The position numbers were made by a program, and so were the translations under genes. DNA of 64,000 nt, from IMG/VR virus record IMGVR_UViG_3300035698_017294, positions 32,001 through 96,000 of that record; one strand, 5' to 3'. Source of the DNA: a virus. Below the pieces are notes generated by a model. The model did not search any database. It was not told the origin of the DNA and saw only the letters and a list, made by a program, of their open reading frames with translations. Of this stretch, positions 7,634 to 55,199 are shown one piece after another. Each line of letters starts with the position of its first letter. Positions within the stretch are counted from its first letter, which is position 1.

Positions 7634-9829
7634 CTAAAGTGTAGTTATTTTGTCTGCAACCATTGAATCGTTTGCTACGGCCAGCATTCTAGCAACCAGC
7701 ATATCTCTACCGGCGACTCTGTGGCCTTTACCAACGATGCAAAGGTAACTGAAATTCTCATCATAAACCTGATGATCATTTCCTACTTCAACGTAGTATG
7801 TTTGTTTTTTTCCCTCTACCTTGTAGGCCTGCATGGTGCCGTATTGATTACGTGTCGGTATGTCTACCAGCTCGGCATTGAGGGATTTTACAGTTTTTGC
7901 CAGCAGGACCTCCGACTTGCGGATCACTTCGTTATATTCCGCTAATCCGGCTTTAAGAAGGTTAGTAACTGCTGACTGCGGTATGGTGATCAGCGCTGGG
8001 TCACCAAACAATGCAAACATATCCTCTAGGGATCTGCATCTTGTTATTTTTGTTTTGAATTGCTTTATATTTCTAACGTGATGCAAAGTCTTATTTTCAT
8101 CATTACCCTTTAGATAATTTTTACCGCGCTTCCTGGTAAGATGAAATACATAGTGCACTGGAATGTTTAAGAAGTTGTCACGATAGGATGCACCGAGTCC
8201 CGTGGCTATGGTGTCATGCAGCTCCATTGAGCAATTGGTAATTGACTTTAGGAACGCATCATACTCTTCATCTGTGTTGTAACACAAAGCTGTAGCAATA
8301 ATTTGCGAAGCCTCTCCCAGGTTTACGCGTACACCATTTATAGTTAGCTTGCTCTGCCGTGTTCCAACAGCTGTCAGCTTAGTAGTACGTAACCCATTCA
8401 CGTTAACTGTTCCAATTTTTGCTTTGAATGACGCCCCTTCGGTACCGGCTCGTATCCCCTGCTCAAGATTTGCACAAAACGCTGTCACAATGTCATCGAA
8501 CTGTACGTTTGCTATACCGCTGTTCCATGTGTATTGTTCTTTATCTCGCAGATATACGCCAATAGCTGATTTGTAGCGGTCATCTAGTACATCATTTATC
8601 TTGTATTCTATGAGTTCAATTCGCTGCGTATCATAGGTTACAGTACCATTTTCGTAGGTTACACCATTGAATTTCAATATCTCGTCTTTTGCAAGTTTGG
8701 ATTGTAGGGCTTTTCGCAGACCTTCCTTGAGCTCTTTTTCGTCATCCGCTTTTCGCATAGCAACTAGCATAGGCAATGAAGTCTCATAGAATTTATCTAT
8801 ATCAAGAGCCAATGAATTTTTCTCACCTACTTCATCTTTGTATGACCGCCAAGCATCGACCCACTCAACCTCCTCCAAAATATTGTTAAGCACTTCGGCT
8901 GAAAACGTGCTACCGTCAATAAAACAAGTAGGAGCGGCCTCGCGGGGGTCTTTAAATAAAAGCATTCCTGCGTCACAATATGGGTATATTTCACTGTCGT
9001 CCGAAACGGTCATTGATTTAGCCAGCATATGTTCATTAACATCAGCAGCATTATCAACGTCTTCTGCATTTTGAAGGTATTGGTTTTCGGCAGACCGGTA
9101 TACTACTGTTCTAACACCATCTTTTTCAGCTACCATTGTGATTTTACATATGCACCACCTATAGGGCAGTTTGTGTATAAGAGATGTCATGTCCTTATGC
9201 TCTTGCAGAGTGGTAAACGCTTCGGTGATTTTATACCCATCTTCTCTGAATTGCTCTACTGCCGCTGGAGTGTCTAGGCGGATTTTTCTGTTCTTATTAG
9301 CCACCTCATAAAGGCTATCAAAATCTGCACAATGCATTTCGATATCTTCAGCTAGAAAATTGATTTTGGAAAAATAGCTCAGCTTTCCAAGCTGTTCTAG
9401 CTTAGGCAGCTCATCTGATCTCCACGAGCAGAGTTTATTACCAGATCCGTATCTGGACACTGATGGCATGGTGAATCTAATAAGATACTTAGATGCTATT
9501 GCACCGTGATCAGCCAGTTCGGATCGTGCGTGTGACTCTAGAATCACTCTAAGTAGTGGGAGTGGGTCGCGGGTGGTATTAAATGTGGCTTCGCACCTTA
9601 GCCACCGTGCTGGAGCGGCATGAATACTACGATCGAAATGTACTGAAAACGGAAAAAAATGACCTACGTTAGGTTTTAAATCCCCTTCAACCCATTCGTC
9701 TATTTCTTTTGATAATTCATCAACTTTAGTAAAGAATTCATCAACTGCGCCTTCTTCGCTGAAGTTGTATATGGCCGCCATGCCCTCTATTTGCTCTCTA
9801 GATCTTCCTTCATACTTAATTTTAGTCAT
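7634..9829 (-). CDS. Large hypothetical protein; C-terminal domain with YLCIV..D..VARMLAVAND; co-transcribed with the Ubl gene
   Basis: 731-aa ORF 12 nt upstream of the Ubl gene; no family recognised. Confidence 0.8.
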   Translation of the reverse strand: MTKIKYEGRSREQIEGMAAIYNFSEEGAVDEFFTKVDELSKEIDEWVEGDLKPNVGHFFPFSVHFDRSIHAAPARWLRCEATFNTTRDPLPLLRVILESHARSELADHGAIASKYLIRFTMPSVSRYGSGNKLCSWRSDELPKLEQLGKLSYFSKINFLAEDIEMHCADFDSLYEVANKNRKIRLDTPAAVEQFREDGYKITEAFTTLQEHKDMTSLIHKLPYRWCICKITMVAEKDGVRTVVYRSAENQYLQNAEDVDNAADVNEHMLAKSMTVSDDSEIYPYCDAGMLLFKDPREAAPTCFIDGSTFSAEVLNNILEEVEWVDAWRSYKDEVGEKNSLALDIDKFYETSLPMLVAMRKADDEKELKEGLRKALQSKLAKDEILKFNGVTYENGTVTYDTQRIELIEYKINDVLDDRYKSAIGVYLRDKEQYTWNSGIANVQFDDIVTAFCANLEQGIRAGTEGASFKAKIGTVNVNGLRTTKLTAVGTRQSKLTINGVRVNLGEASQIIATALCYNTDEEYDAFLKSITNCSMELHDTIATGLGASYRDNFLNIPVHYVFHLTRKRGKNYLKGNDENKTLHHVRNIKQFKTKITRCRSLEDMFALFGDPALITIPQSAVTNLLKAGLAEYNEVIRKSEVLLAKTVKSLNAELVDIPTRNQYGTMQAYKVEGKKQTYYVEVGNDHQVYDENFSYLCIVGKGHRVAGRDMLVARMLAVANDSMVADKITTL

Positions 9830-29398: not shown

Positions 29399-29661
29399 TC
29401 AATCTGGGTCAGGCCCAATATCTATTATGGGTATTTCAAATATTTGTGAATACTCTTGATCTGCATGTCTCCAGGATTTTTGGTTACCATCTTTATCACA
29501 TGGTACCTTGCAGGCTCGACTAATACAAAAATTGTGCTTGTCGGCAGTAATAAATTCGCCAAAGTGTCCAGAAACTCCTACCGGTAAATCGTCTGGAATA
29601 CTCTCTAATAGCTTTTTTAAATCTCTTACGGTAAAATATTTTGGATAGGTTTTTTTGGCAT
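29399..29661 (-). pseudogene. Small hypothetical ORF frameshifted in an A7 run near its start
   Basis: GGAGAG RBS + ATGCC(A7). One extra A gives MPKKTYPKYFTVRDLKKLLESIPDDLPV... Confidence 0.45.
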
Positions 29662-29680
29662 AATCTCTCCTTTAATTAAG

Positions 29681-29755
29681 GGCCCCCGACCGGATTTGAA
29701 CCGGCAAAAATCCTGGGCCACGGCCAGGCGCTTTAACCTATTAAGCTTCGAGGGC
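29681..29755 (-). tRNA. tRNA-His(GUG)
   Basis: CCTGG-ccGTGgc-CCAGG; C73; atypical C33. Confidence 0.8.
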
Positions 29756-31918: not shown

Positions 31919-32530
31919 TTAATAATCAGTTACTATCCAGTAAGTGCCGTCGCTAAAATCAAATGTAGCTTCGTGACACTCATCGAGATTCATATTGTCT
32001 GTAAGTATCTCCAGCGAGTCACGCTTTATCAGGCGGAATCTAGAGGTATGTTGGTCGCTTTTAATTTTATCTCGTGCTCGCATTAGGGCTAAGCCTAATC
32101 TGTTTTGTCCGCGCCATTTAGACTCGTCAAGGCGTCGGCCATCGCCAATACCTAATCCAATTCCCCACCGCTTATCTGATGGACTGCACTCTACTAGGAC
32201 ACTATCCCCAGTACGCATCAGTTCGCTGCATGCGTTTGGGTTGCCGCGGAATTTGGATAGCACTGAGTAATACATTATATCATCGGCTATCTTATCCCAA
32301 GCGGTGTCGGAATAACTTGCTATTGTGCGTCCAAAGGCTTTCGCTTCCGCAGGTGTTTTGGCTTTTAAAATGGCTTCGGCTGTAGCCGTGTCCCAAAAAG
32401 ACAGGGCCTTGTACCACATAAAACAATGCTCACTCGTTAGAAACATTGTATTGGTGTGAAAGAACGGTGCGCGGTGAAAGTTACTGAAAGGTGATATAGA
32501 ATTATAAAAAAACGTGTACTTTGGTTCCAT
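31919..32530 (-). CDS. NADAR (YbiA) family N-glycosidase
   Basis: PFSNFH, TSEH.FM..KA, P.EAK.FGR, LVECSPSDKRWGIG, WRGQNRLG.ALM..R. Confidence 0.92.
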   Translation of the reverse strand: MEPKYTFFYNSISPFSNFHRAPFFHTNTMFLTSEHCFMWYKALSFWDTATAEAILKAKTPAEAKAFGRTIASYSDTAWDKIADDIMYYSVLSKFRGNPNACSELMRTGDSVLVECSPSDKRWGIGLGIGDGRRLDESKWRGQNRLGLALMRARDKIKSDQHTSRFRLIKRDSLEILTDNMNLDECHEATFDFSDGTYWIVTDY

Positions 32531-33779: not shown

Positions 33780-33863
33780 ATTAACCTCCTTAGTGCGTTA
33801 AACAAAAGATTATAACGCCATGTATAATCTACTTATCTTATACCATAGAATATGAAAAAAGAA

Positions 33864-37189: not shown

Positions 37190-37283
37190 GATTACTCCTT
37201 TACTTAAACGTTTTGGTATATCTAATTTAATTAATACGAGTGGAGGGAATCGAACCCACACGGGATTTCTCCCACTAGATCCT

Positions 37284-38085
37284 CTTACCACACTTGCTTT
37301 CACAAGCCAGCTATTAAGCTGTTGTAGTCTGGACTATATCATCATCTTCAGCATTACCTGCTAAGAGCCCGGCGTATAGTCTCTGAGGGGTCATTACAGA
37401 CTTCCCTGCGGATTGCCAATTGTTTCATTCTACACATTGTTACTTGACAAATCAGTCCAAATTTGGTAGACTTGTAGTAGTGCAGACTTTACGGGTTTCC
37501 CGCATATAGCCAGGTTCCATCTAATTATTTCTAACCAGAGGCTCAGATTCATGAAAAATATATCAAAAGATGTTTTGTCAGAAATGTATTTAACGCAGAA
37601 ACTTAATCCATACGAAATAAGTAATATACTAGACTGCGATCATAAAACAGTTCGTAGATACCTAAAATTACATAAGATACAACTACGTACTGCGTCTGAG
37701 TATAATTACTTACCTCGAGTTTCGCATACTAATCCCACTAAAATAGAGTATATGCAGCCTAAATCAATAGCGGCGCATATTGCCTATTTATGCGAAGGTT
37801 GGCACACTAATAAAACTAATGGGCTTTATTTCTGTAATACAGATCCAAATTTAAATGATCTCATGTTGTGGTGCCTCAAAGAGATATACAATGCTAAAAC
37901 TATTAGATTGCGCATAATGGCAAAGTCTTTAGAGTCGGCAAAGCATTTATTAACATTCTATCCTAATACACCAGTAAGTGTAGAGTTAGATAGAAAGACA
38001 CCAATACTTAGAATTGTCTCGGGCGGGAAAACATTTGCTCGGGACTTCATTAAAAACGCTTATGATATAATTGATTCACTTGGTT
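37284..38085 (-). mobile_element. Group I intron (IC-like) between anticodon positions 34 and 35
   Basis: U before the 5' splice site, terminal G; IGS-like TGAGCC; P TATATGCGGGAAA, Q AATCCGCAGG, R CTCAGAGACTATA, S ATGATATAGTCC. Confidence 0.92.
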
Positions 38086-38087: not shown

Positions 38088-38129
38088 GTCTAGCGCGTAT
38101 ACCTAGTTTCGCCACACTCGCTAAAAGCG

Positions 38130-38210
38130 TACAGTTAGAGGGACTCGAACCCCCAAGGTATCACAGTACCACAACTCTCACTGCGCGTCTACCATTTTCG
38201 CCATAACTGT
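38130..38210 (-). tRNA. tRNA-Leu(GAG)-like with a shortened anticodon arm
   Basis: Leu-type D-arm GGCGAAAATGGTAGACGC, variable arm and T-arm, but loop TGAGAG is 6 nt. Confidence 0.55.
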
Positions 38211-41649: not shown

Positions 41650-43929
41650 TTACTTCGGAACCAATTCGTGGAGATTGGACAGGCTGTAAACCTTGGTACC
41701 ATCGGGAAGGCCCCCAGGAACATCGATTCCAACATATACGTATGGCCCGTACGTGTCTTTTAACTTATCCATATTAGGGGTAGCCCAAGACACGGTATTG
41801 GCACTCTTGCGCCTCATCAAACGAGTCATTACTCCCACTGTAATGTAAGAGCGCTTTGCAACAGCACGAAGGAGCATTGAGGTACTTGCCTTGTTGCCCT
41901 CGATCGTATTATAGTTGGCGTGACCCTTCAGGAAGAAATGCATCCACTTAGCGTACCACTTATCGCCAGTGCCCTTCATGAACATCACTGGCGACGAGAT
42001 TTCACCTACGCCCCTCATGTCAGAGCGATAGCGTACGGTACTGGGCTCGAATGGCTTCCCTTTCCCGAATTCAGTGCGCATCATAAATCCGAACATCGAT
42101 TCCTTGGCGTCTGCAAAGCTTTCACCTGAGTAGAGATTTACTTGTGGCACGATGTAGCGGCACTCAGGTGGCACGTTATCCAGCTTGATGTCGATAAACT
42201 CAGTAGCGCCGTTTGGAGCCCTTACTAAATCACCGCTGTAATAAGCGAAGCCACCTTGCCGGAGGCTGGTCCAGGAGACGTGGCAGAGCATTTTAAAGTT
42301 CTCGTCCAACATGATAGCGCCGAGATCGTAATCCGTGCGCTGGTGGTTCTGATGCCAGTGAGTGAAGAAGCGAAGTATGTTAAGCTCCGGATCTTCGGAA
42401 AGTTCAGTTACAGATCCAACCGGCATAATGTTGAAACCAGTGCCCTTGCCCTTCTCGGTGAGCGGGAGTGCTAGCCCTTCAACATGCCTGTCAACAATCA
42501 GCGTCCCAATATTTGGTAACCGCGTCACAATCTCATCGGCAATCAAATTAGAGCACTTGTCCACATCATCAGAGCGTAACCATGGGCGAGTTTCCCACGT
42601 GATCCAAGTTTTACCCTTGGTGTTTGTAAACATGCGGTTGTTGGCTTGTGATTGTGGCATACCGTCGTCCACACGATTGATAAGGTGCTCGCCTAGCGAC
42701 AACATAACACGGGCCGATACCTTTGGAAGGACTGCCTCTATGTTGTGCAACACAAGCTTTTGATTGAGCGGGTGCTGATCCGATTTAACCAAAAGATTGT
42801 CTACGCTGCGCATGAAGTTACCAGGGTTCATTTTTAAGAGACGTGTCGCCTTTGCAACATCCGGTGGAGATGCATTCAAGGCTTCCTGTATCTCACCCGC
42901 AGTGGTTTTTACTGCCATAGCACCATAAGCCACGGCAAAGACGTCCTGTGCGCCGGACCACGCAGTGTAGGACATATCAAATGGATGAATTCTTTCACCA
43001 AGTCGTTTCCACTCCTCTCTGAATCGCATCACGTCGTGAAGTTTACCTGGATGAAGCTGGACTACCCTGTCGAGGGCCATCATGAGCAGACGGCGTACAC
43101 GGCGAGAAAGTGATACAAACTTAGTTGGCGTTGCAAGTGTTACATCACCATCAGAAAGTGCACAAGCCAGTCGTAATACATCAGTAACGGTATCCACTAG
43201 TATACCCATACTGGGGGCTATTGGTATGAGTTTCTCAATGTGTGCTACACGCACGGCATTTACCAATGCCTTATTTTCCCTTATTGGGAAGTCTGGTTGT
43301 ATAATATCGTTAATGCACACCTCTGCTAGCCCTACCAGCATGTCTCGGCCTTCATCACTCAGCGGAACTGTACTGTCGCCAAGCTCCGTGTACAACTTCC
43401 ATGATTCGCGTTGCAGCGTCTCACCAAGATGTAATACAGTGATTCGGCCCTTTGCGTGGGAAAGGAGGTCTTCGTGAGCATTCAGCATATCCTCATAGGT
43501 ATGCTGGTACCTCCCGTACTTTGGAAGATCTAAAAGATTGATGGTCTGGTGGTTAACCAGAACACTAATCGGATCCACCGCGCCAGTACAGAATGCATCT
43601 ACGAGGCAATCATGCCAGTGCTCTTCTGTTGTAGGAATATTGTGTGGGAAATCAATGAAGTAGGGATTGTGCTTAACGTTGTCACCGATAAGCTCCTTGA
43701 CAGCCGGTATGAGACTCTCACATATTGTCTGTACTTCGGATACGGGACATGAGGTAAGTGCCCTAATTAGGTCTGCTGAAAGCTTGAATCCGGACTTCAT
43801 TAAAGCCTCATCAAGATTTAGAACAAGCATGTTCACCCTGCACCCCTCTGTGCCAGCATGATCAACTGGTACACGCAAGGTATGCGTTATAATAGTATGC
43901 ATCAGATTCATATAACTGTCTCCTTTCAT
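41650..43929 (-). CDS. Helical-repeat (TROVE/Ro-like) protein fused to a C-terminal TerD-like domain
   Basis: TDVLRLACALSDGDVTL, PG.F.RSVD.L helical region; LRFFTHW..TDYDL..YSGD...AP.GATEFID TerD-like C-terminus. The TROVE-like call is inference. Confidence 0.7.
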   Translation of the reverse strand: MKGDSYMNLMHTIITHTLRVPVDHAGTEGCRVNMLVLNLDEALMKSGFKLSADLIRALTSCPVSEVQTICESLIPAVKELIGDNVKHNPYFIDFPHNIPTTEEHWHDCLVDAFCTGAVDPISVLVNHQTINLLDLPKYGRYQHTYEDMLNAHEDLLSHAKGRITVLHLGETLQRESWKLYTELGDSTVPLSDEGRDMLVGLAEVCINDIIQPDFPIRENKALVNAVRVAHIEKLIPIAPSMGILVDTVTDVLRLACALSDGDVTLATPTKFVSLSRRVRRLLMMALDRVVQLHPGKLHDVMRFREEWKRLGERIHPFDMSYTAWSGAQDVFAVAYGAMAVKTTAGEIQEALNASPPDVAKATRLLKMNPGNFMRSVDNLLVKSDQHPLNQKLVLHNIEAVLPKVSARVMLSLGEHLINRVDDGMPQSQANNRMFTNTKGKTWITWETRPWLRSDDVDKCSNLIADEIVTRLPNIGTLIVDRHVEGLALPLTEKGKGTGFNIMPVGSVTELSEDPELNILRFFTHWHQNHQRTDYDLGAIMLDENFKMLCHVSWTSLRQGGFAYYSGDLVRAPNGATEFIDIKLDNVPPECRYIVPQVNLYSGESFADAKESMFGFMMRTEFGKGKPFEPSTVRYRSDMRGVGEISSPVMFMKGTGDKWYAKWMHFFLKGHANYNTIEGNKASTSMLLRAVAKRSYITVGVMTRLMRRKSANTVSWATPNMDKLKDTYGPYVYVGIDVPGGLPDGTKVYSLSNLHELVPK

Positions 43930-44384: not shown

Positions 44385-44489
44385 ATTTCCTCTAATCTGC
44401 AGTGGGCGGAGGGGGACTCGAACCTAATATGTATGTTGCTTAGCAGTAGATACATACCCTAACTAAACTAAAGCTTAAAGCTACGTATC

Positions 44490-44879
44490 TTATTCCACAA
44501 TTTTTTGTTTTAATTCATCAAATGTTTGATGATGATAGCTCCGTTTGTGTGTGGATGGATCCACATGTACGAACACTATTTTATCAATTGAACAGATGAC
44601 AGTGTGATCTGTTTTATTGCGTACTTCGCAACAAACAGTATATGAAGTCTCGCCTACGTCGATAAGGTCGATACCAATCTCAATAAGGTCACCCTTACGT
44701 GCGGGTTTCTGAAAGTTCACTTCGGATATGAGTTTTGTGACAATGCTTTTCTTGCCTGTCTTATACATAACCCATGCAGCCGCTTCTTCATCCACCCATG
44801 CTAGTAATTGTCCACCGAATAAAGTATCATGGCTGTTTAAGTCTTGATACCTAATCAAATGGCTTGTAGTAAATTCCAT
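44490..44879 (-). CDS. Hotdog-fold acyl-CoA thioesterase
   Basis: DLNSHDTLFGGQLLAWVDEEAA, VT..ISEVNF..P..GD.I, VGETS. Confidence 0.9.
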   Translation of the reverse strand: MEFTTSHLIRYQDLNSHDTLFGGQLLAWVDEEAAAWVMYKTGKKSIVTKLISEVNFQKPARKGDLIEIGIDLIDVGETSYTVCCEVRNKTDHTVICSIDKIVFVHVDPSTHKRSYHHQTFDELKQKIVE

Positions 44880-46174
44880 TACATCCCCCTCGTTTTGCCG
44901 TGCACATGTTTTACTGTTGGAAAGCGTAACGAATATTGCTTCGTTTTCTGGTCTCGAGTTTCTTCAAAATACTGGACTGTAATTAGGTTGCCAATTATAG
45001 CACCGGGGTTGTAGTGGTATTCTTGCCTCTGTTCCAAAGACCATCCAGACCCCACGCCAACCTCATTGTCGCGATACATTATAATTGCTTTAGTCATTGT
45101 AGTTATTGTGTCTTCTAGTCCGGTTATTTTATTAATGATGCGGAACGGCCCAGACTTGATTCTGGTTACTGTAAACTCTGCATCGTGGAACTTTTTAAGC
45201 TTTAACAGGTTTTGCGTACGCTTACCTTCGTACGGCACATCTTTGCGAAGCATTGCACCTTCCCAGCCCTTTTTATTAGCGGCCGCAAAGAAGTCTTCAA
45301 GGTCTTCAACGCTGTGAACTATACGCTGGTTTAATGGTTTTAGGATCGTATTTTTGCGACCAATTGCTTCATATCGTAAGATGCGCTTTGTTAAGTCGGG
45401 GGATTTCTTTTTACCCTCAAACTCGTCAAGTGTTAGCATATCAAAAATCATGTATCTGGGATTTTGTATCACATGCTTTTTCTTGCGTATCTGCTTCATT
45501 ACGCTAGCAAAGTCTTCATTGCCGTGATCATCTATGATACATATTTCGCCATCAAAAACAGTATTACGTAGATCTAGTTTTTTAATTTCTTCAATAACCA
45601 GCCCGAGTGTTTCTATGGGCTTGCCTGTTCTAGTCCACGCTTTAATATTTCCATCAGCCCCAACTATGATAATGCAGCGCACACCATCAAGCTTCCGTGA
45701 TATATACCAGCTAGTTTCATATTTGCCGAACGTTACTCTGTGTATAAACTCTTTGTACTTCTCGGCTAGCGCAACCTTAAACTCCTTTATAGAGCCGGGC
45801 CAGACTTGGTTAATTTGTTTCACACCCAATCGGACCTTTAGGTTTTTATCCAACATCATGTGGACGATGTCTGCATATACTGGATACTCAGCTATAAAAT
45901 GGTTAATATAGTTATGTGCCTCGTGCCCTGTTATTTTGCGGGAAGCTAAATCATCAAGCAGTGAGAATATATCCAAATGTATTTCACAGTCATCTTCCAT
46001 ATACGCTGCCTTCGTTAATGCTGCAGATGTTATCCCGTATGTCATATCAGGATCGTGTGCGTATATAAAATACTTTTTCAAATCTTCGTAACTTGCCAAG
46101 ATGATTTTCTTAGCTGTCATCGAATTAGTTGTGTTTAGTTCATCTAAACATTCTTGTAATCTCTTTAAACTCAT
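44879..46174 (-). CDS. lig: ATP-dependent DNA ligase
   Basis: SRKLDGVRC, VFDGEI, IFD, WEGAMLR, LLKLK, VGSG, SLRFP. Confidence 0.95.
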   Translation of the reverse strand: MSLKRLQECLDELNTTNSMTAKKIILASYEDLKKYFIYAHDPDMTYGITSAALTKAAYMEDDCEIHLDIFSLLDDLASRKITGHEAHNYINHFIAEYPVYADIVHMMLDKNLKVRLGVKQINQVWPGSIKEFKVALAEKYKEFIHRVTFGKYETSWYISRKLDGVRCIIIVGADGNIKAWTRTGKPIETLGLVIEEIKKLDLRNTVFDGEICIIDDHGNEDFASVMKQIRKKKHVIQNPRYMIFDMLTLDEFEGKKKSPDLTKRILRYEAIGRKNTILKPLNQRIVHSVEDLEDFFAAANKKGWEGAMLRKDVPYEGKRTQNLLKLKKFHDAEFTVTRIKSGPFRIINKITGLEDTITTMTKAIIMYRDNEVGVGSGWSLEQRQEYHYNPGAIIGNLITVQYFEETRDQKTKQYSLRFPTVKHVHGKTRGM

Positions 46175-46199
46175 ATTTTCCTCTATGTAAATTGTGTAA

Positions 46200-46272
46200 C
46201 GGGCCCGGGAGGAGTCGAACCTCCGACACCGCGGTTAACAGCCGCGTGCTCTGACCACTGAGCTACAGGCCC
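46200..46272 (-). tRNA. tRNA-Asn(GUU)
   Basis: CGCGG-ctGTTaa-CCGCG; G73. Confidence 0.93.
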
Positions 46273-46288
46273 TTTATAAATTGTAAAT

Positions 46289-46346
46289 AAAAAAAAGCAC
46301 ACAGCTAATTCCGCCTACTCGTAAGAATAAGCCGAATTAGCCGTAT
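46289..46346 (-). terminator. Long hairpin plus U-tract (terminator or small RNA)
   Basis: GCTAATTC..GAATTAGC stem followed by TTTTTTTT on the minus strand. Confidence 0.5.
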
Positions 46347-46383
46347 ACAATTTTATGCTTTGTCTATGTCAAAGATCTTTCTA

Positions 46384-46457
46384 TGGCGGGGACGGGATTT
46401 GAACCCGTGACCTTAAGGGTATGAGCCTTACGAGCTGCCAGACTGCTCCACCCCGCT
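46384..46457 (-). tRNA. Initiator-like tRNA-Met(CAU)
   Basis: GCGGGGTGGAGCAG..GGCAGCTCG fMet-type body, 1:72 mismatch; anticodon stem has only two G-C pairs next to the loop. Confidence 0.88.
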
Positions 46458-46461
46458 GTGT

Positions 46462-46672
46462 ACTAGCTTTACTTCTTGCGACTGGTCGTTAGTAATATCG
46501 CATTGGCCGGTTTTCCGCCTTTGCACTAATACCTGCGCAGCTTGGAAAGCGGAGCGGGTGATCGTGGTTGGCGGAAAAAAGGCCTGGAGGCGATTATTAC
46601 CGGCGATCAATATCGCGTCTTCAATAATCGTCCGAGACGTTACGTCCCAGAATGTGATAGCCTAAAGCTAGT
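46462..46672 (-). ncRNA. Structured ncRNA candidate, family II copy A
   Basis: Closing ACTAGCTTTA/TAAAGCTAGT, GAGACGTTACGTCCC hairpin, ~140-nt irregular rod. Confidence 0.65.
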
Positions 46673-47005
46673 TAGTTTTACTTTTTGGCGGTACCCCTCT
46701 ACAACGATAGGTTGTCGATAGATTGTTCCCGAGCGAATGCGAGGGAAAATCTGGCGATAAGAGGTGGTTCGCCAACTTTGGACTTGTTGGGGATCCGGAT
46801 CCCCGATCGGGGAGCCCCGCACGCGTCGGGGCGCCTGCGGTCCGGAGAGCCGGAGACCTGGAAAGCCCATTTTGGAACAAAACGTGTTCCCGCGAGACGT
46901 TACGTCTCACAGCATTACGAATCACCGTGGGCTGCACTAGCCTGAACTCGGCTACTACAGATTACGCTGATTTTGACCGTAACACATATCTAAATCTAAA
47001 ACTAA
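46672..47005 (-). ncRNA. Structured ncRNA candidate, family II copy B
   Basis: Closing TTAGTTTTA/TAAAACTAA, GAGACGTTACGTCTC hairpin, ~90-nt rod plus GC-rich hairpins. Confidence 0.65.
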
Positions 47006-47007
47006 AG

Positions 47008-47330
47008 TGGAGGCGAAGGGAGTTGAACCCTTGTCCACACGATAACGAAACATGCTGTTTCTTACAGGCTTAGTTAGTTTTTACACTTTTATTTGTTAAT
47101 CCGGGGCGGTTCTGAAACTAACTTAGTAGTCCCCGGCGTTGGCCATTTGTTTAGCCGTGGTCTAGCGGCTTTCCGATCCGGCGCCGATTCCCTAACATCG
47201 GAGTCTTAGGGTCGACGGCTACTTAGTTAACCTAAGCGGCTAGTGGTAAATATTCGTCAATTACATTGAAAGGAGTATCATGCCTGTAGCATATATCGAT
47301 AGAATCGCATGTCGAAACCAATGCGCCCCC
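47008..47330 (-). ncRNA. ssrA: tmRNA; tag (A)DEYLPLAA* at 47232-47258
   Basis: 5' GGGGGCG..GGTTTCGAC, 3' GAC.AGGGTTCAACTCCCTTCGCCTCCA, G3.U70, tag ending LAA-stop. Confidence 0.93.
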
Positions 47331-47345
47331 ATAAAATAATACAAT

Positions 47346-47525
47346 TTACAACTGCTGTGCTGTTACGCCAAAGACGGTGGGAAAGCGCTCCCAATGCCGC
47401 GGGCTCCCACGCCTTTTTCTCGGGAGTACCATTTAAGTTACCGCTCCTCTGGTTCGTTGCAGATGCAGGCCATCGGTGTCACTCTTTAAAGGGTGGCTGC
47501 TTCTAAGCCTACCTCGCCGCTGTAA
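47346..47525 (-). ncRNA. ncRNA family III copy A: mimic of 23S rRNA H43/H44
   Basis: GAGGTAGGCTTAGAAGCAGCCACCCTTTAAAGAG (H43) and GCGTAACAGC (H44) inside a TTACAGC/GTTGTAA closing stem. Confidence 0.8.
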
Positions 47526-47559
47526 GGTGTATTCATATGTTGTTGTGTAAATTTATGTG

Positions 47560-47739
47560 ATACAACTGCTGTGCCGAGTTTAAGTCGACTAAAGACCGCT
47601 ATCCAGCTGTGATAGCTACGGACGGTTCCTCCTTCACAGGGAGGAAAAAATTATCCGCGACAATAGGTCGTTGCAAATGCAGGCTACTGCCATCAACATT
47701 AAAGGCTCGCGTAATTGCGTCAACACCTGGCCGTTGTAT
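47560..47739 (-). ncRNA. ncRNA family III copy B (paralogue with altered loops)
   Basis: Shares TACARCGGC.AGG, CTTTAA, GCCTGCATYTGCAACGA, GTCTTT and GCACAGCAGTTGTA with copy A. Confidence 0.75.
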
Positions 47740-47755
47740 AGATAAATTAAAAAGA

Positions 47756-47837
47756 AGCGGAAAGCACATGAAGTAGTTGGTACATCATAAGTGTACTGCA
47801 CATTGTGCAGTTAGAAGGAACTTCATGTATGGCCACT
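47756..47837 (-). ncRNA. ncRNA family IV copy 1 (Y-RNA-like)
   Basis: GG-CCAT-ACATGAAGT-TCCTTCTA..ACTTCATGT-GCTTT-CC. Confidence 0.75.
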
Positions 47838-47839
47838 AA

Positions 47840-47911
47840 TGCGCCGCCCCGGACTTGAACCAGGAACCGACCTCCCCACGGAGGGTGCTCTATCTATTGA
47901 GCTAACAGCGC
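47840..47911 (-). ncRNA. tRNA-like RNA with a 4-nt anticodon loop
   Basis: Canonical acceptor, D and T arms; CCTCC-gtgg-GGAGG. Confidence 0.7.
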
Positions 47912-47917
47912 GAAATA

Positions 47918-47997
47918 TACGGAAGGCGTTCGAAGTAAGGTTTTTAAGGATTCGCCCGCCGGGCGAATAAGTAGAAGGAACTTCGAACATAGCCGTA
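47918..47997 (-). ncRNA. ncRNA family IV copy 2 (Y-RNA-like)
   Basis: GG-CTAT-GTTCGAAGT-TCCTTCTA..ACTTCGAAC-GCCTT-CC. Confidence 0.75.
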
Positions 47998-48009
47998 ATA
48001 AAAACAAAA

Positions 48010-48116
48010 ACAGGAAAGCAGTTAAAGTAGGTTATATAGCGGGTCTCCAACGCCTCGATAGACGCCGAGCGCCCCGCTGGGCTTTATAAGTAGAAGGAAC
48101 TTTAACTATGGCCTGT
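48010..48116 (-). ncRNA. ncRNA family IV copy 3 (Y-RNA-like)
   Basis: GG-CCAT-AGTTAAAGT-TCCTTCTA..ACTTTAACT-GCTTT-CC. Confidence 0.75.
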
Positions 48117-48118
48117 AG

Positions 48119-48215
48119 TGGGGCACCCAGGACTCGAACCTGGAACCAACAGAGTCCGCAGCGTCATACAGCGCCGCTTACAGTCAGCTGCCCTAGCCAA
48201 TTGAGCTAGCGCCCC
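48119..48215 (-). tRNA. tRNA-Tyr(GUA)-like with a ~23-nt insertion 3' of the anticodon (48155-48177)
   Basis: GCTGA-ctGTAa-[GCGGCG ctgtatga CGCTGC gga]-c-TCTGT; short variable loop. Confidence 0.7.
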
Positions 48216-48220
48216 TAAAC

Positions 48221-48250
48221 AAAAAAAGCGACTCATAACATGGTCGCTTT
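48221..48250 (-). terminator. Terminator/attenuator upstream of the RNA array
   Basis: AAAGCGAC-loop-GTCGCTTT followed by a U-tract. Confidence 0.6.
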
Positions 48251-48281
48251 AAGATTTCAAATATTGCCATGTTTTATATAT

Positions 48282-48371
48282 CTACTTGAAACCTGCATTT
48301 CTCCCTAGGACGGATTGGTCTTCCGGGCGAATGGCTGGTTTATATGTAAATAATACATGGAGTGTTTTCAT
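48282..48371 (-). CDS. Putative leaderless 29-aa leader peptide MKTLHVLFTYKPAIRPEDQSVLGRNAGFK
   Basis: ATG 7 nt downstream of the -10 box. Confidence 0.4.
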   Translation of the reverse strand: MKTLHVLFTYKPAIRPEDQSVLGRNAGFK

Positions 48372-48377
48372 GTCATT

Positions 48378-48406
48378 AGTATACTAAATTTAGATCTGCT
48401 TGTCAA
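48378..48406 (-). promoter_or_regulatory. Sigma70 consensus promoter
   Basis: TTGACA-N17-TATACT. Confidence 0.85.
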
Positions 48407-48409
48407 GTA

Positions 48410-48790
48410 AAAAACCGGCGAGGCTGGCAAGAGTGGATAGACCACCCCTGCCGATCGGGTATCAACCGCATGCACTCGCCCCTTATAGCTTACCAAACTA
48501 TCTGTAAAACTGGACTCACAGAACCGCCGATGCAAATAAACGAACCAGTTCCGGTCCGCATTCCACCGATAAGCCCGTGCAGACTCGCGGTATTATTGTT
48601 TCACAGGTGCACGCTCTGTGAATTTTTAGTCCGCATAAAGGCCTTAATTTATAACCGATAACACCCTCGCATTTGGGGTGCCTCTCGGTACGATCCCGTA
48701 GCCCAGATTACAGTATAGTTGGCCCACAAACGCGTCGTGAAAAATGTATTAACACGACGGCAAGGGCAGGTAAACCGTATACGATAGTTT
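48410..48790 (-). ncRNA. Structured ncRNA candidate(s)
   Basis: ORF-free; AAACTATC/GATAGTTT closes ~295 nt with several hairpins; GGCGAG/CTCGCC domain followed by a U-tract. Confidence 0.5.
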
Positions 48791-48869
48791 TCTTATACCA
48801 GCTTTTTTTTTATTTTTTTTACTTTAACACCCTGGCATAGCCCTATGAATAAAGTTCTCATGTATCACC

Positions 48870-49757
48870 TTAAAAATTACCGTAGTTAACCTGTAAGCAA
48901 GTTAATCCGAGTTCCTTTCGCCACATATCTACAACTTGATCACGATCGTCCAGTACGAAGTCAACGTAATACTTGCCCTTCACATGTGCATCATATAGCT
49001 CACGCTTTACAAGGCTGTCCTTGCGATCGTCGCCAGGGTGCCGCATGAAAAGATCGGTATACTTAACTTTGTTATCAAACAACCATTCACGGGTGAGTGT
49101 CTCACATGATCCGTCGCGCCCAGATAAAAGTATCACGTGGCGAGTCGGATCTGCCATAATAAGGTCGTAAATAGGCTGACTAAGCGTGTCTAGCTTAACC
49201 TTCTGGAATTCAAATGGCCCGCGATTACCGCGATGCAGCGCAAGAGTTCCATCAAGATCACAAATAATCGCACGTGGTAGAGCAAGATCCTGTACCACCA
49301 AGTCAAGTTCAACATCTGGTTCTTTGATAAAGCTATCGTGGAAATCACGTATCACCTTTTCACCGACAGAGTTAGGGCAAACTAGGTCTCGGCGGATGCA
49401 CTCTTCTATAGGTACACTAAGGAAGTCCGTGTTGAGTTGTGCTACAACTGGATTTTTGCAACCCTCTTCCTTGTTGATCTCCTGCGCAATCTGCTGCATG
49501 CGAGTCCAGTGCTTTGGGTGTAGATTTGTATCGTCTACAATAACACTGAAGCCCCCCTTTACTATTTGCTTTACCATCCAGTCGCGTGTTTTTAACACAA
49601 GCTTTTCATTGTAAGGCGTCCACTTACCACCTAGCATCATACGCAGGTCGTCTTTGTTGACACGCTTGATCTGGCCAGGATGATCATTTACTTGTTGCTT
49701 CGCCCATGTCGACTTTCCCGACGCTGGAAGTCCCTTGACTACTATTATTTTCCTCAA
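48870..49757 (-). CDS. pseT: Polynucleotide 5'-kinase/3'-phosphatase (T4 PseT-like)
   Basis: GLPASGKSTWA, RVNKDDLR, DDTNL; CDLDGTLA, LSGRD, DDRDQVV. Confidence 0.93.
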   Translation of the reverse strand: MRKIIVVKGLPASGKSTWAKQQVNDHPGQIKRVNKDDLRMMLGGKWTPYNEKLVLKTRDWMVKQIVKGGFSVIVDDTNLHPKHWTRMQQIAQEINKEEGCKNPVVAQLNTDFLSVPIEECIRRDLVCPNSVGEKVIRDFHDSFIKEPDVELDLVVQDLALPRAIICDLDGTLALHRGNRGPFEFQKVKLDTLSQPIYDLIMADPTRHVILLSGRDGSCETLTREWLFDNKVKYTDLFMRHPGDDRKDSLVKRELYDAHVKGKYYVDFVLDDRDQVVDMWRKELGLTCLQVNYGNF

Positions 49758-50808
49758 ACTTGATCCCCCTTTTTATTATTTTCCATATATACTCACCGGC
49801 TTTATCAAATCGCCTATCCCAAATATGGAACAGTAGGGCTGGATGCCGCTCCCGCTGAAAGCACTTAGCTACATACTTGCGCTCAGTATCAGGTGAAAGT
49901 TGCATCTTTTTAAGCGTGTTTAAGCCGCTGCGGATTAGATCGTCGTGCTTTTGATAAAACTTTGCGCATGTTTCGTCAATCCAATCCCAATGCTCTTCAC
50001 CAGCGCCCTGGCGCAGGCTTTCAATCGGTTCACCTTTTATTATATAATCCAGCACAGTTTTCCCAGTCAGAGACATGCGTATACGTTGAAGCCGTTTGTA
50101 CTCCTCGAACTTGACCTTCATTCTAAAGTCTTCTTTTGGGTAATACAAAACAAAGCCTTCTTTGTTCGTAAGATTAAGCTTTTGCGCACCAGCAAAGTCA
50201 CGTGTTGCAATTGTATCAGCTGGGTATCGGTGCGGTGTGGGAAATCCTGGATTGTGATACGCTGTTTCTCCAAGCCTGTTGTCTATTGTTGCTACCAATA
50301 TAAGTTCTCTACGATCGCCGTAATTTATAACTAAACGATCTTCGGCGCGGTCGTCCGGATAGATGATTTCGAATTGATATGTCAACCCGTCTTTATACTC
50401 TAAGCCACTATACTTTTCATTGAGGATTTTATTGGCTTGTATTGCCTGCTTGGAATCGAACGATCCACGTGTCGCTATGCCGCGGTAGTCACCATAGGCA
50501 TACATAATGCCAGCATAGCCGTCCAGCTTATCGTATATTTCGAACTCGCTAATCGGTATTTCGCCGTCTTCTAGCTCATCAAAGTTAAAAAACTTGTACA
50601 GCGGGCGAGAAATAACTTTCCAGTCATCATCAACAATCAATCCTCTGCACATCCTTACCGACAAGGGCCAGTACCAATCAAACATGGCCTTCTTGGTATA
50701 GTTAAGTATCGATAATGGAATGGCTGGATCTGGATGATGCTGTAATCTTACGTACCCAGCATCCATCATATACTCAATATCTTTGCGCAGAGCGCCATCG
50801 ATAATCAT
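49684..50808 (-). CDS. RNA ligase 1 (T4 RnlA-like)
   Basis: LNYT, CRGLIVD, RPLYKFFN, DKLDG, ATRGSF.S.QA, FEII, EGFV, MKVKF..Y. Confidence 0.9.
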   Translation of the reverse strand: MIIDGALRKDIEYMMDAGYVRLQHHPDPAIPLSILNYTKKAMFDWYWPLSVRMCRGLIVDDDWKVISRPLYKFFNFDELEDGEIPISEFEIYDKLDGYAGIMYAYGDYRGIATRGSFDSKQAIQANKILNEKYSGLEYKDGLTYQFEIIYPDDRAEDRLVINYGDRRELILVATIDNRLGETAYHNPGFPTPHRYPADTIATRDFAGAQKLNLTNKEGFVLYYPKEDFRMKVKFEEYKRLQRIRMSLTGKTVLDYIIKGEPIESLRQGAGEEHWDWIDETCAKFYQKHDDLIRSGLNTLKKMQLSPDTERKYVAKCFQRERHPALLFHIWDRRFDKAGEYIWKIIKRGIKFEENNSSQGTSSVGKVDMGEATSK

Positions 50809-53142: not shown

Positions 53143-53168
53143 AGTTTGTCCTTAGTAATTTGTAAATA

Positions 53169-53196
53169 AAAAAAAGCCCACCATAGTGGCGGGCTT
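53169..53196 (-). terminator. Intrinsic terminator
   Basis: AAGCCCGCCA-cta-TGGTGGGCTT followed by a U-tract. Confidence 0.7.
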
Positions 53197-55162: not shown

Positions 55163-55199
55163 TAAATGTAATCGTTAAACTTAGATATCTTATACCATT

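Follow-up and report, generated by a model that had tools for sequence, protein, structure and literature searches.

What does a virus encode in a stretch of about 2.7 kb that lies between its RNA-repair genes and its DNA ligase gene and holds no open reading frame (ORF) longer than 89 codons? The question is raised by the viral contig IMGVR_UViG_3300035698_017294 from IMG/VR, which is 106 kb long and 56% complete according to CheckV. Its positions 32,001 to 96,000 were analysed here; these 64,000 nucleotides (nt) are called the window below, and all positions are counted from its first letter. The island under study runs from 46200 to ~48800. In the direction of transcription it follows the genes for an Rnl1-type RNA ligase (rnl1) and a T4-type polynucleotide kinase/phosphatase (pnk), and precedes those for an ATP-dependent DNA ligase and a thioesterase, all genes in this neighbourhood being on the minus strand (Table 1). 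On balance we consider it probable that this is a stable-RNA gene island of a large tailed phage, a judgement that applies jointly to the island, its two to three transcription units, the processing of the transcripts and the action of some products as decoys.

The general features of the island agree with such an assignment. The ORF limit given above holds for the whole interval between 48870 and 46200, and the seven longest ORFs of the island gave no match in Pfam or PHROGs. Its G+C content is ~50% compared with ~42% in the flanks, and RNA other than tRNA occupies ~1.9 of the ~2.7 kb. A preliminary description had listed twelve RNA modules over ~2.2 kb, tightly packed right behind rnl1 and pnk and transcribed as one RNA-only operon. 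All twelve exist on the minus strand in the order given, gene annotation places them next to rnl1 and pnk, and the folds agree with the tight packing and with a closing stem for each module. The description of several RNAs as new also holds, as these have no counterpart in Rfam 15. Within 46000-49000, the RNAs II-1, II-2 and the RNA upstream of the consensus promoter showed no match to GOLLD, ROOL, OLE, HEARO or raiA, either at the gathering score or at E-values up to 10; for the upstream RNA, Rfam gave no match at all. Nevertheless, twelve is an undercount, since a micro-ORF, terminators and an upstream promoter with its RNA had been overlooked, and the extent was too short, since the island continues upstream to ~48800 with a promoter, a structured RNA (z of -6) and a terminator. 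The observation itself was thus largely right and the island is richer than stated, while the model of a single RNA-only operon is not supported as it stood.

Part of the answer comes from two neighbouring RNAs in the middle of the island, III-1 and III-2. III-2 contains a 45-nt match (84%) to positions 1036-1080 of E. coli 23S ribosomal RNA (rRNA), and in a BLAST comparison of the island modules with an E. coli rrn operon this GTPase-associated centre was the only significant hit. The elements of the GTPase-associated centre of 23S rRNA (helices H42 to H44, E. coli 1051-1108) that recur in III-2 are the H43 stem-loop, including the A1067 loop, the UUUAAAGAG junction and the GCGUAACAGC loop of H44; a closing helix stands in the place of H42. 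In contrast to the ribosomal site, III-2 is a free-standing RNA of ~190 nt in which ~100 nt inserted into the H44 5′ strand interrupt the assembly of H43, H44 loop and H42-like closing stem, and it sits beside a paralog, III-1, with both rRNA-like loops replaced. An origin as a fragment of a 23S rRNA gene was rejected, as only 45 nt align and nothing does so beyond the 60-nt centre.

The H43 motif was searched in IMG/VR, giving 83 stretches, 80 of which were examined. In 79 of the 80, the alignment with rRNA spans just 30-48 nt, so these are not rRNA genes. All elements share one architecture, namely a variable closing helix, the H43 stem-loop, a UUUAAAGAGU junction, a stem-borne insert of 46 to >300 nt and the strand UUUGGCGUAAYAGCACA. 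A covariance model (R2) made from 25 other phages' elements, and containing no window sequences, recovered III-2 over its full length (Table 1); III-2 also retains the loops and the H44 G-C pairs found unchanged in all family members. Among the 25 members, covariation was seen at all eight pairs of the closing helix P1 and all five of the insert stem, and paired cells amounted to 88% compared with 28-52% when the partners were slid. Purifying selection on the family is thus clear in dozens of phage lineages, and by these comparisons III-2 is a member of a widespread, unannotated phage RNA family that reproduces the binding site of uL11 and the GTPase factors on 23S rRNA.

Among 69 distinct elements, 42 have a tRNA or transfer-messenger RNA (tmRNA) gene no more than 300 nt away. 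No Rfam annotation was present at the elements in 16 loci, the family is absent from Rfam 15, and the searchable literature gave no description of a phage mimic of the GTPase-associated centre. Unannotated members occur in cultured phages, including Pseudomonas phage pf16, Cronobacter phage GAP32, Pectobacterium phage CBB and Xanthomonas phage XaC1. In pf16 (KU873925.1) the element occupies an unannotated gap between tRNA-Asn and tRNA-Pro at ~29400-29650, and in GAP32 (JN882285.1) an unannotated gap at ~289500-289800; these two phages would be convenient experimental systems for the mimic. The preliminary description had counted two family III RNAs. Both are present and share their ends and a 17-nt core by alignment, a core whose pattern scan gave 19 matches, which is chance level. 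Only III-2 belongs to the family, as III-1 gave no score with R2 even with the filters off; because of this, and because both loops are replaced, III-1 is best described as a scaffold paralog.

Table 1. Features of the island and its flanking genes (window positions; z, folding z-score; MFE, minimum free energy; R1 and R2, covariance models of family IV and of the GTPase-associated-centre mimic)
Feature	Position	Strand	Evidence or remark
rnl1, Rnl1-type RNA ligase	49684-50808	-	upstream of the island in transcription order
pnk, T4-type polynucleotide kinase/phosphatase	48870-49757	-	upstream of the island
Putative extended -10 type promoter motif TGGTATAAGA behind an A-tract	48783-48800	-	directly after pnk
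Upstream structured RNA, ~370 nt	48782-48409	-	MFE z -6.0; ends in a compound hairpin + U6 terminator (~48481-48409)
Consensus sigma-70 promoter TTGACA-17-TATACT	48406-48378	-	11/12 consensus positions
Micro-ORF, leaderless, 29 codons	48285-48371	-	ATG 7 nt past the -10
Intrinsic terminator, hairpin + U7	48250-48221	-	between the micro-ORF and the first tRNA-like gene
tRNA-Tyr(GUA)-like gene	48215-48119	-	Rfam tRNA 46.5 bits; no ARAGORN call
IV-1	48118-48003	-	R1 87 bits
IV-2	48000-47915	-	z -5.0; R1 95 bits
Closed-loop tRNA-like element ("mimic")	47911-47840	-	Rfam tRNA 36.7 bits in a short search; fold
IV-3	47838-47745	-	z -3.7; R1 94.5 bits
III-1	~47745-47555	-	scaffold as in III-2, both rRNA-like loops replaced (alignment)
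III-2	47538-47332	-	member of the GTPase-associated-centre mimic family; R2 95.9 bits, E 6e-27
tmRNA, tag DEYLPLAA*	47330-47005	-	ARAGORN; RF00023 88.3 bits
II-1, 335-nt RNA	47005-46672	-	z -7.8 folded with true ends
II-2, ~210-nt RNA	46671-46460	-	closed by a 10-bp stem; z -5.9
tRNA-Met(CAU)	46457-46384	-	ARAGORN; Rfam 61 bits; canonical
Terminator-like 9-bp hairpin + U8	46342-46289	-	between tRNA-Met and tRNA-Asn; read from sequence
tRNA-Asn(GUU)	46272-46200	-	ARAGORN; Rfam 70 bits
ATP-dependent DNA ligase	44879-46174	-	downstream of the island

Besides the rRNA mimic, the island carries tRNA genes of two kinds. Genes were called with ARAGORN and Rfam (gathering scores of 29 bits for tRNA, RF00005, and 47 bits for tmRNA, RF00023), which agree on tRNA-Asn, tRNA-Met and the tmRNA. 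These are canonical genes, as described before; the tRNA-Met, previously named tRNA-fMet, has an initiator-like A1/C72 mismatch as read from the sequence. The predicted products of the island therefore include ordinary translation helpers. The other two tRNA-type genes had been described as a tRNA-Tyr with an insert and as a tRNA mimic, and both descriptions stand, the cloverleaf of the former scoring above the gathering score and that of the latter 36.7 bits. In the Tyr-like gene, the Rfam alignment places 24 extra nt directly after position 37 of the CUGUAA loop, and the variable loop is short. The insert forms a hairpin of 6 base pairs (bp) with an 8-nt apical loop, such that CUGUA is displayed twice, in an internal and in the apical loop; the gene thereby lacks the 7-nt anticodon loop on a 5-bp stem of a functional decoder. 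In the second element, a paralog of the first, the anticodon arm reads CCUCC-GUGG-GGAGG. Because its 5-bp anticodon stem is closed by only 4 nt, with GUG and no U33, this element cannot decode. As predicted from sequence and fold, both tRNA look-alikes therefore have anticodon arms that are unable to decode. T-arm-like repeats at 44401 and 40818 were also considered, and these are not tRNAs.

The look-alikes could be compared with those of one relative. A search with the DNA ligase identified a single other lineage (L223/L224, a 189-kb contig) at 53% identity, and its locus L224 is syntenic with the island. There, rnl1 and pnk are followed by a TGGTATAAGAAA motif, an RNA of ~260 nt, the promoter TTGACA-17-TATAAT, a 29-codon ORF and a terminator, then by a tRNA-like gene, ~165 nt of RNA, a second tRNA-like gene, tmRNA, a 300-nt RNA and tRNA-Met, and further on by tRNA-Asn and the ligase. 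Its GTPase-centre mimic lies elsewhere (8192-8398, 97.9 bits). The first tRNA-like gene (2502-2573, 42 bits) has the loop AAGAGCU, and the second (2741-2829, 47.6 bits) has a 25-nt insert with a palindromic hairpin in its anticodon arm; neither is called by ARAGORN. Non-decoding tRNA-like genes ahead of the tmRNA are thus conserved in L224, with details that differ, even though the flanking proteins are only about half identical.

These L224 genes also bear on another explanation of the Tyr-like gene, in which the insert is a true intron that is cut at 37/38 by an endonuclease and sealed by Pnk and Rnl1 to give a working tRNA-Tyr by a eukaryote-like route. As in the archaeal and eukaryotic tRNA introns that are spliced by proteins, the insert stands at the canonical 37/38 position with heal-and-seal enzymes nearby, pnk and rnl1 being 0.7 to 2.6 kb upstream, and in fungi and plants, splicing of this heal-and-seal type by homologous enzymes is well documented (PMC10946435, PMC4090602). 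Moreover, removal of 23 nt would leave a normal CUGUAAC loop on a 5-bp stem, and the 106-kb contig has no other Tyr tRNA. However, in this contig (56% complete) no splicing endonuclease (PF01974) was found, the fold contains no bulge-helix-bulge motif, and the host of the virus is bacterial, in contrast to the known cases. The anticodon stem would furthermore contain a U-U mismatch. A bacterial tyrosyl-tRNA synthetase expects a long variable arm, and that of the Tyr-like gene is short. Given the completeness of the contig, a normal tRNA-Tyr may also lie elsewhere. Finally, the L224 equivalents are non-Tyr tRNA-like genes with different, non-canonical anticodon arms, which favours non-decoding look-alikes. 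Overall, an intron is considered unlikely. A literature search on short phage tRNA introns gave nothing relevant.

How the island is transcribed can be read in part from its signals. The consensus sigma-70 promoter of the preliminary description proved to be real, host-type and strong: sites as good as this number two in 64 kb, with 0.11 expected, and L224 has the equivalent noted above at the same place. The first product of this promoter is probably a small protein encoded by the leaderless micro-ORF. A counterpart of 29 codons in L224 (2338-2424) likewise lies behind the promoter and before an intrinsic terminator. Global alignment of the two gave a score of 37, which none of 2000 shuffles reached (10.7 +/- 4.7); in a frame test, the ORF frame pair scored 41 and all others at most 18, and several conserved residues differ at synonymous positions only. 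Because BLASTP alone found nothing for the micro-ORF, its conservation is regarded as probable rather than proven. The terminator that follows keeps its position in L224 with changed stem bases, and for both the window and L224 its hairpin forms in the MFE structure and with the simulated ribosome at any position. Since it always folds, the array downstream of 48221 must rely on read-through or on a promoter of unrecognised type. A leader-peptide attenuator was rejected, as the hairpin persists in both loci whichever part of the leader is masked.

Two further sets of signals frame this unit. Directly after pnk, the motif TGGTATAAGA occurs, and L224 has the same motif (TGGTATAAGAAA) after its pnk at 2017-2030. 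Exact copies in the window are three (33845, 48800, 55197), and ten matches, all on the minus strand, are found with at most one mismatch; such motifs are probably extended -10 promoters of the phage. Sites of this kind (33836-33845, 44488-44497, 48791-48800, 55188-55197 and six more) precede genes or tRNAs. At the other end, a terminator-like hairpin separates tRNA-Met from tRNA-Asn, and a weak TTGACA promoter-like site stands ahead of it at 46371-46366, with TTGATA at the same place in L224. The 3′ part of this hairpin element belongs to a repeat that is found again at 53150-53181: compared with 46271-46302, a U-run followed by ATTTACAA...TAAAGG recurs at 88%, and this may represent a pair of terminator and start signal.

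The single operon of the preliminary description, in which a ~2.2-kb early precursor from the consensus promoter is processed into twelve RNAs and nothing else, has to be judged against these signals. The promoter is strong, rare and conserved, no other good promoter was found between 48221 and 46384, and the modules abut, all of which would suit one precursor. On the other hand, a conserved micro-ORF would be its first product, a hairpin with U7 that is folded in all simulated states stands directly ahead of the first tRNA-type gene, a hairpin with U8 sets tRNA-Asn apart, and further upstream the island has a promoter and a terminator of its own. Because the micro-ORF and terminator precede the first tRNA, the stretch is not RNA-only, nor is it plainly a single operon, as far as can be judged from sequence, which leaves room for read-through at both hairpins. 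A single RNA-only operon is hence improbable. Instead, the island probably holds at least two, and likely three, host-type transcription units; the micro-ORF and terminator predict two classes of transcript and a possible control point.

The remaining RNAs of the island fall into family IV, with three copies, and three single RNAs. The three family IV RNAs of the preliminary description are confirmed by a common fold, which consists of an invariant GUUCCUUCUA strand (10 nt), a 5-bp terminal stem, an internal loop and a 10-bp stem. In the three-copy alignment, eight of the 15 shared pairs are kept through changes on both sides; these compensatory changes, together with the invariant strand, indicate selection on the fold. 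A covariance model of the family (R1) retrieved only the three copies from the 106-kb contig, and no family IV RNA from L224. A repeat search showed that the unit of a tRNA-like gene plus a IV RNA is duplicated (48091-48150 compared with 47812-47871, 78% over 60 nt), and the IV RNAs that follow tRNA-like genes begin 1-3 nt past the discriminator base. The invariant strand was also considered as an antisense of phage ribosome-binding sites and rejected, as 64 kb contain its complement at a single place, where there is no start codon; its 6-nt complementarity to the A1067 loop is too short to carry weight.

II-1 and II-2 had been taken as two copies of a family II. They share one 18-nt hairpin (CUGNGACGUAACGUCUCG) and are otherwise different RNAs. 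II-1 is a five-way junction closed by UAGUUUUA/UAAAACUA and contains the hairpin GAGACG-UAA-CGUCUC. Its ortholog in L224 (3203-3500, ~300 nt) has the same closing helix and the same five-branch layout, with the hairpin AGGACG-UAG-CGUCCU, in which two pairs show compensatory changes with respect to the window. These three features kept in L224 identify II-1 as a conserved gene. In a pattern scan of IMG/VR, the two family II motifs were found only in the L223/L224 lineage. A 19-nt stretch of the tmRNA (AAAGUGUAAAAACUAACUAAGC, 47080-47100) recurs almost exactly in the 3′ closing strand of II-1 (46668-46686), and likewise in L224. II-2, which ends 3 nt before tRNA-Met, has no counterpart in L224. 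The upstream RNA is not recognisably conserved in L224, where its z is -1.0, and it is only weakly supported as a gene because of this poor conservation. A sarcin-ricin-like GAGA hairpin in the upstream RNA was dismissed, as the bulged-G motif is absent by eye.

Taken together, these features would fit the following mechanism. In a first unit, the extended -10 promoter would drive the ~370-nt structured RNA, which would stop at its terminator. In a second, the sigma-70 promoter would give the leaderless micro-ORF, ending at the intrinsic terminator, and polymerase reading through would transcribe the Tyr-like gene, IV-1, IV-2, the closed-loop element, IV-3, III-1, III-2, tmRNA, II-1, II-2 and tRNA-Met; the terminator-like hairpin would come next, and then tRNA-Asn. 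The folds of the tRNAs, tRNA-like RNAs and tmRNA would serve RNase P and 3′-end processing, and their packed neighbours would be cut free. Since only 1-3 nt separate a tRNA-like 3′ end from the IV RNA behind it, and II-2 stops so close to tRNA-Met, the ends of IV and II-2 would be defined by tRNA-processing enzymes. Off the ribosome, the look-alikes may then serve as decoys or sponges, capturing proteins that would otherwise bind or attack the mimicked sites. Candidate targets are uL11 and the stalk proteins, toxins against the GTPase centre and G-U-N-specific anticodon nucleases, and cuts made by such nucleases could be resealed by the neighbouring Pnk and Rnl1. The anticodons displayed in the island (GUA, GUG and GUU) are those attacked by the known G-U-N-specific anticodon nucleases; they are substrates of colicin-E5-type nucleases, and Pnk/Rnl1 repair exactly such cuts.

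Several results weigh against this reading. III-2 by itself folds no better than shuffled sequences (z +0.14). Folding with a masked leader gave no antiterminator structure, and read-through of 48250-48221 is assumed. In ~1.7 Mb of related or tRNA-rich phage loci, R1 detected no family IV RNA, and no homolog of II-2 or of the upstream RNA was found outside the contig; a pattern scan of IMG/VR with the family IV motif gave three matches, none of them confirmed by R1. Family IV, II-2 and the upstream RNA thus appear lineage-restricted in these searches, and their conservation rests on paralogs within one genome, as no homolog occurs outside the contig. A 759-aa protein encoded nearby (41650-43929, minus strand) was rejected as Ro60, its structural neighbours being of the TerD/MXAN_6230 type. 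A decoy function is plausible; it is suggested by the resemblance of the look-alikes to the mimicked sites, and its target proteins are hypothetical.

Part of these results would be expected if the segments other than tRNA had no function in trans, being spacers for processing, exonuclease protection or termination, or decaying duplicates of tRNA, tmRNA and the rRNA mimic. The restriction of family IV, II-2 and the upstream RNA to the contig would agree with this, as would the terminator-like U-runs that end IV-1 and IV-3, the tmRNA-like 19-mer at the 3′ end of II-1, and III-1, which is without both rRNA-like loops and is not recognised by R2. Spacers or decay would not explain, however, why an invariant 10-nt strand and 15 pairs, eight of them changed in a compensatory way, are common to the three IV copies, why the layout and compensated hairpin of II-1 persist in L224 with flanking proteins at only 53% identity, or why the III-2 family is under purifying selection over dozens of phage lineages, and we consider this explanation quite unlikely. 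That family IV represents phage Y RNAs, with the 759-aa gene and its vWA neighbour supplying a Ro60-like protein, is highly improbable: the layout of a terminal stem, internal loop, second stem and pyrimidine-rich strand beside a tRNA-like domain does recall Y RNA and YrlA, and tRNA-like domains have precedents in Y RNAs of bacteria and phages (PMC4201824), but Rfam Y_RNA and YrlA are unmatched at E-values up to 10, the conserved Ro-binding helix sequence is absent, no Ro60 gene was found, and the 759-aa protein lacks a TROVE domain, its sole Pfam hint being TerD. The TerD/MXAN_6230-type family of its neighbours is common in Actinomycetota and phages.

The stable-RNA island with decoys can also be set beside known systems. 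The usual interpretation of tRNA clusters in phages is that they help with codon usage or provide spares against anticodon nucleases. From the T4 tRNA cluster, host tRNA-processing enzymes liberate two additional stable RNAs (species 1 and 2, rnaC/rnaD), and T4 encodes Pnk and Rnl1. The island shares with it packed tRNA genes interspersed with small stable RNAs, transcription by the host polymerase, as predicted here, and both repair enzymes. In contrast to T4, the island has far more RNA other than tRNA, arranged in paralogous families, and adds a tmRNA, look-alikes with disabled anticodons, an rRNA-site mimic and a micro-ORF with a terminator in front. It indicates that a phage tRNA cluster can hold more structured non-tRNA RNA than tRNA. 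A literature search on stable RNAs in phage tRNA clusters gave nothing relevant.

Known countermeasures against anticodon nucleases include the tRNA-Tyr of T5 against retron PtuAB, the tRNA-Lys of T5 against PARIS, and Pnk/Rnl1 of T4 against PrrC. The tRNA-type genes of the island similarly adjoin RNA-repair enzymes. Unlike the T5 tRNAs, two of them cannot decode owing to the closed loop and the 24-nt insert, so that any protection would come from decoys and not from replacements. As for processing, mascRNA/MALAT1, the E. coli 3′ETS-leuZ sponge and mitochondrial tRNA punctuation provide parallels to IV starts and a II-2 end that abut tRNA-type genes; there is no homology to these systems, and processing in the island is a prediction.

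More tentatively, the parts may be combined into a coordinated decoy kit that imitates the translation machinery. Its parts would be a copy of the GTPase centre, a re-targeted paralog, disabled G-U-N tRNA bodies and companion RNAs (families IV and II). A host promoter would activate them via the micro-ORF/terminator gate, and they would titrate ribosome- and tRNA-directed defence toxins or stress sensors of the host while Pnk and Rnl1 repair the remaining cuts. This is a possibility to which we give limited credence. If decoys are indeed made, they would constitute a new class of RNA-based tools for anti-defence or host takeover aimed at translation. The idea can be tested directly, since members of the mimic family are present in phages of Pseudomonas, Cronobacter, Pectobacterium and Xanthomonas that can be cultivated.

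Apart from its tRNAs, no sequence similarity of the island to any cultured phage was found. The two closest Pnk homologs have 52% identity. Relatives identified via Pnk in IMG/VR and metagenomes, with identities of at most 48%, carry tRNA arrays after pnk from which the new RNAs are absent. Other tRNA-related features occur elsewhere in the window. At 38129-38210 on the minus strand, ARAGORN called a tRNA whose loop has 8 nt and whose anticodon has four bases (gttg), and a group I intron (Rfam 63 bits) at 37311-37565, also on the minus strand, is followed by a T-arm/acceptor-like stretch at 37231-37256. Another tRNA of the window, a canonical tRNA-His, is located at 29680-29755.

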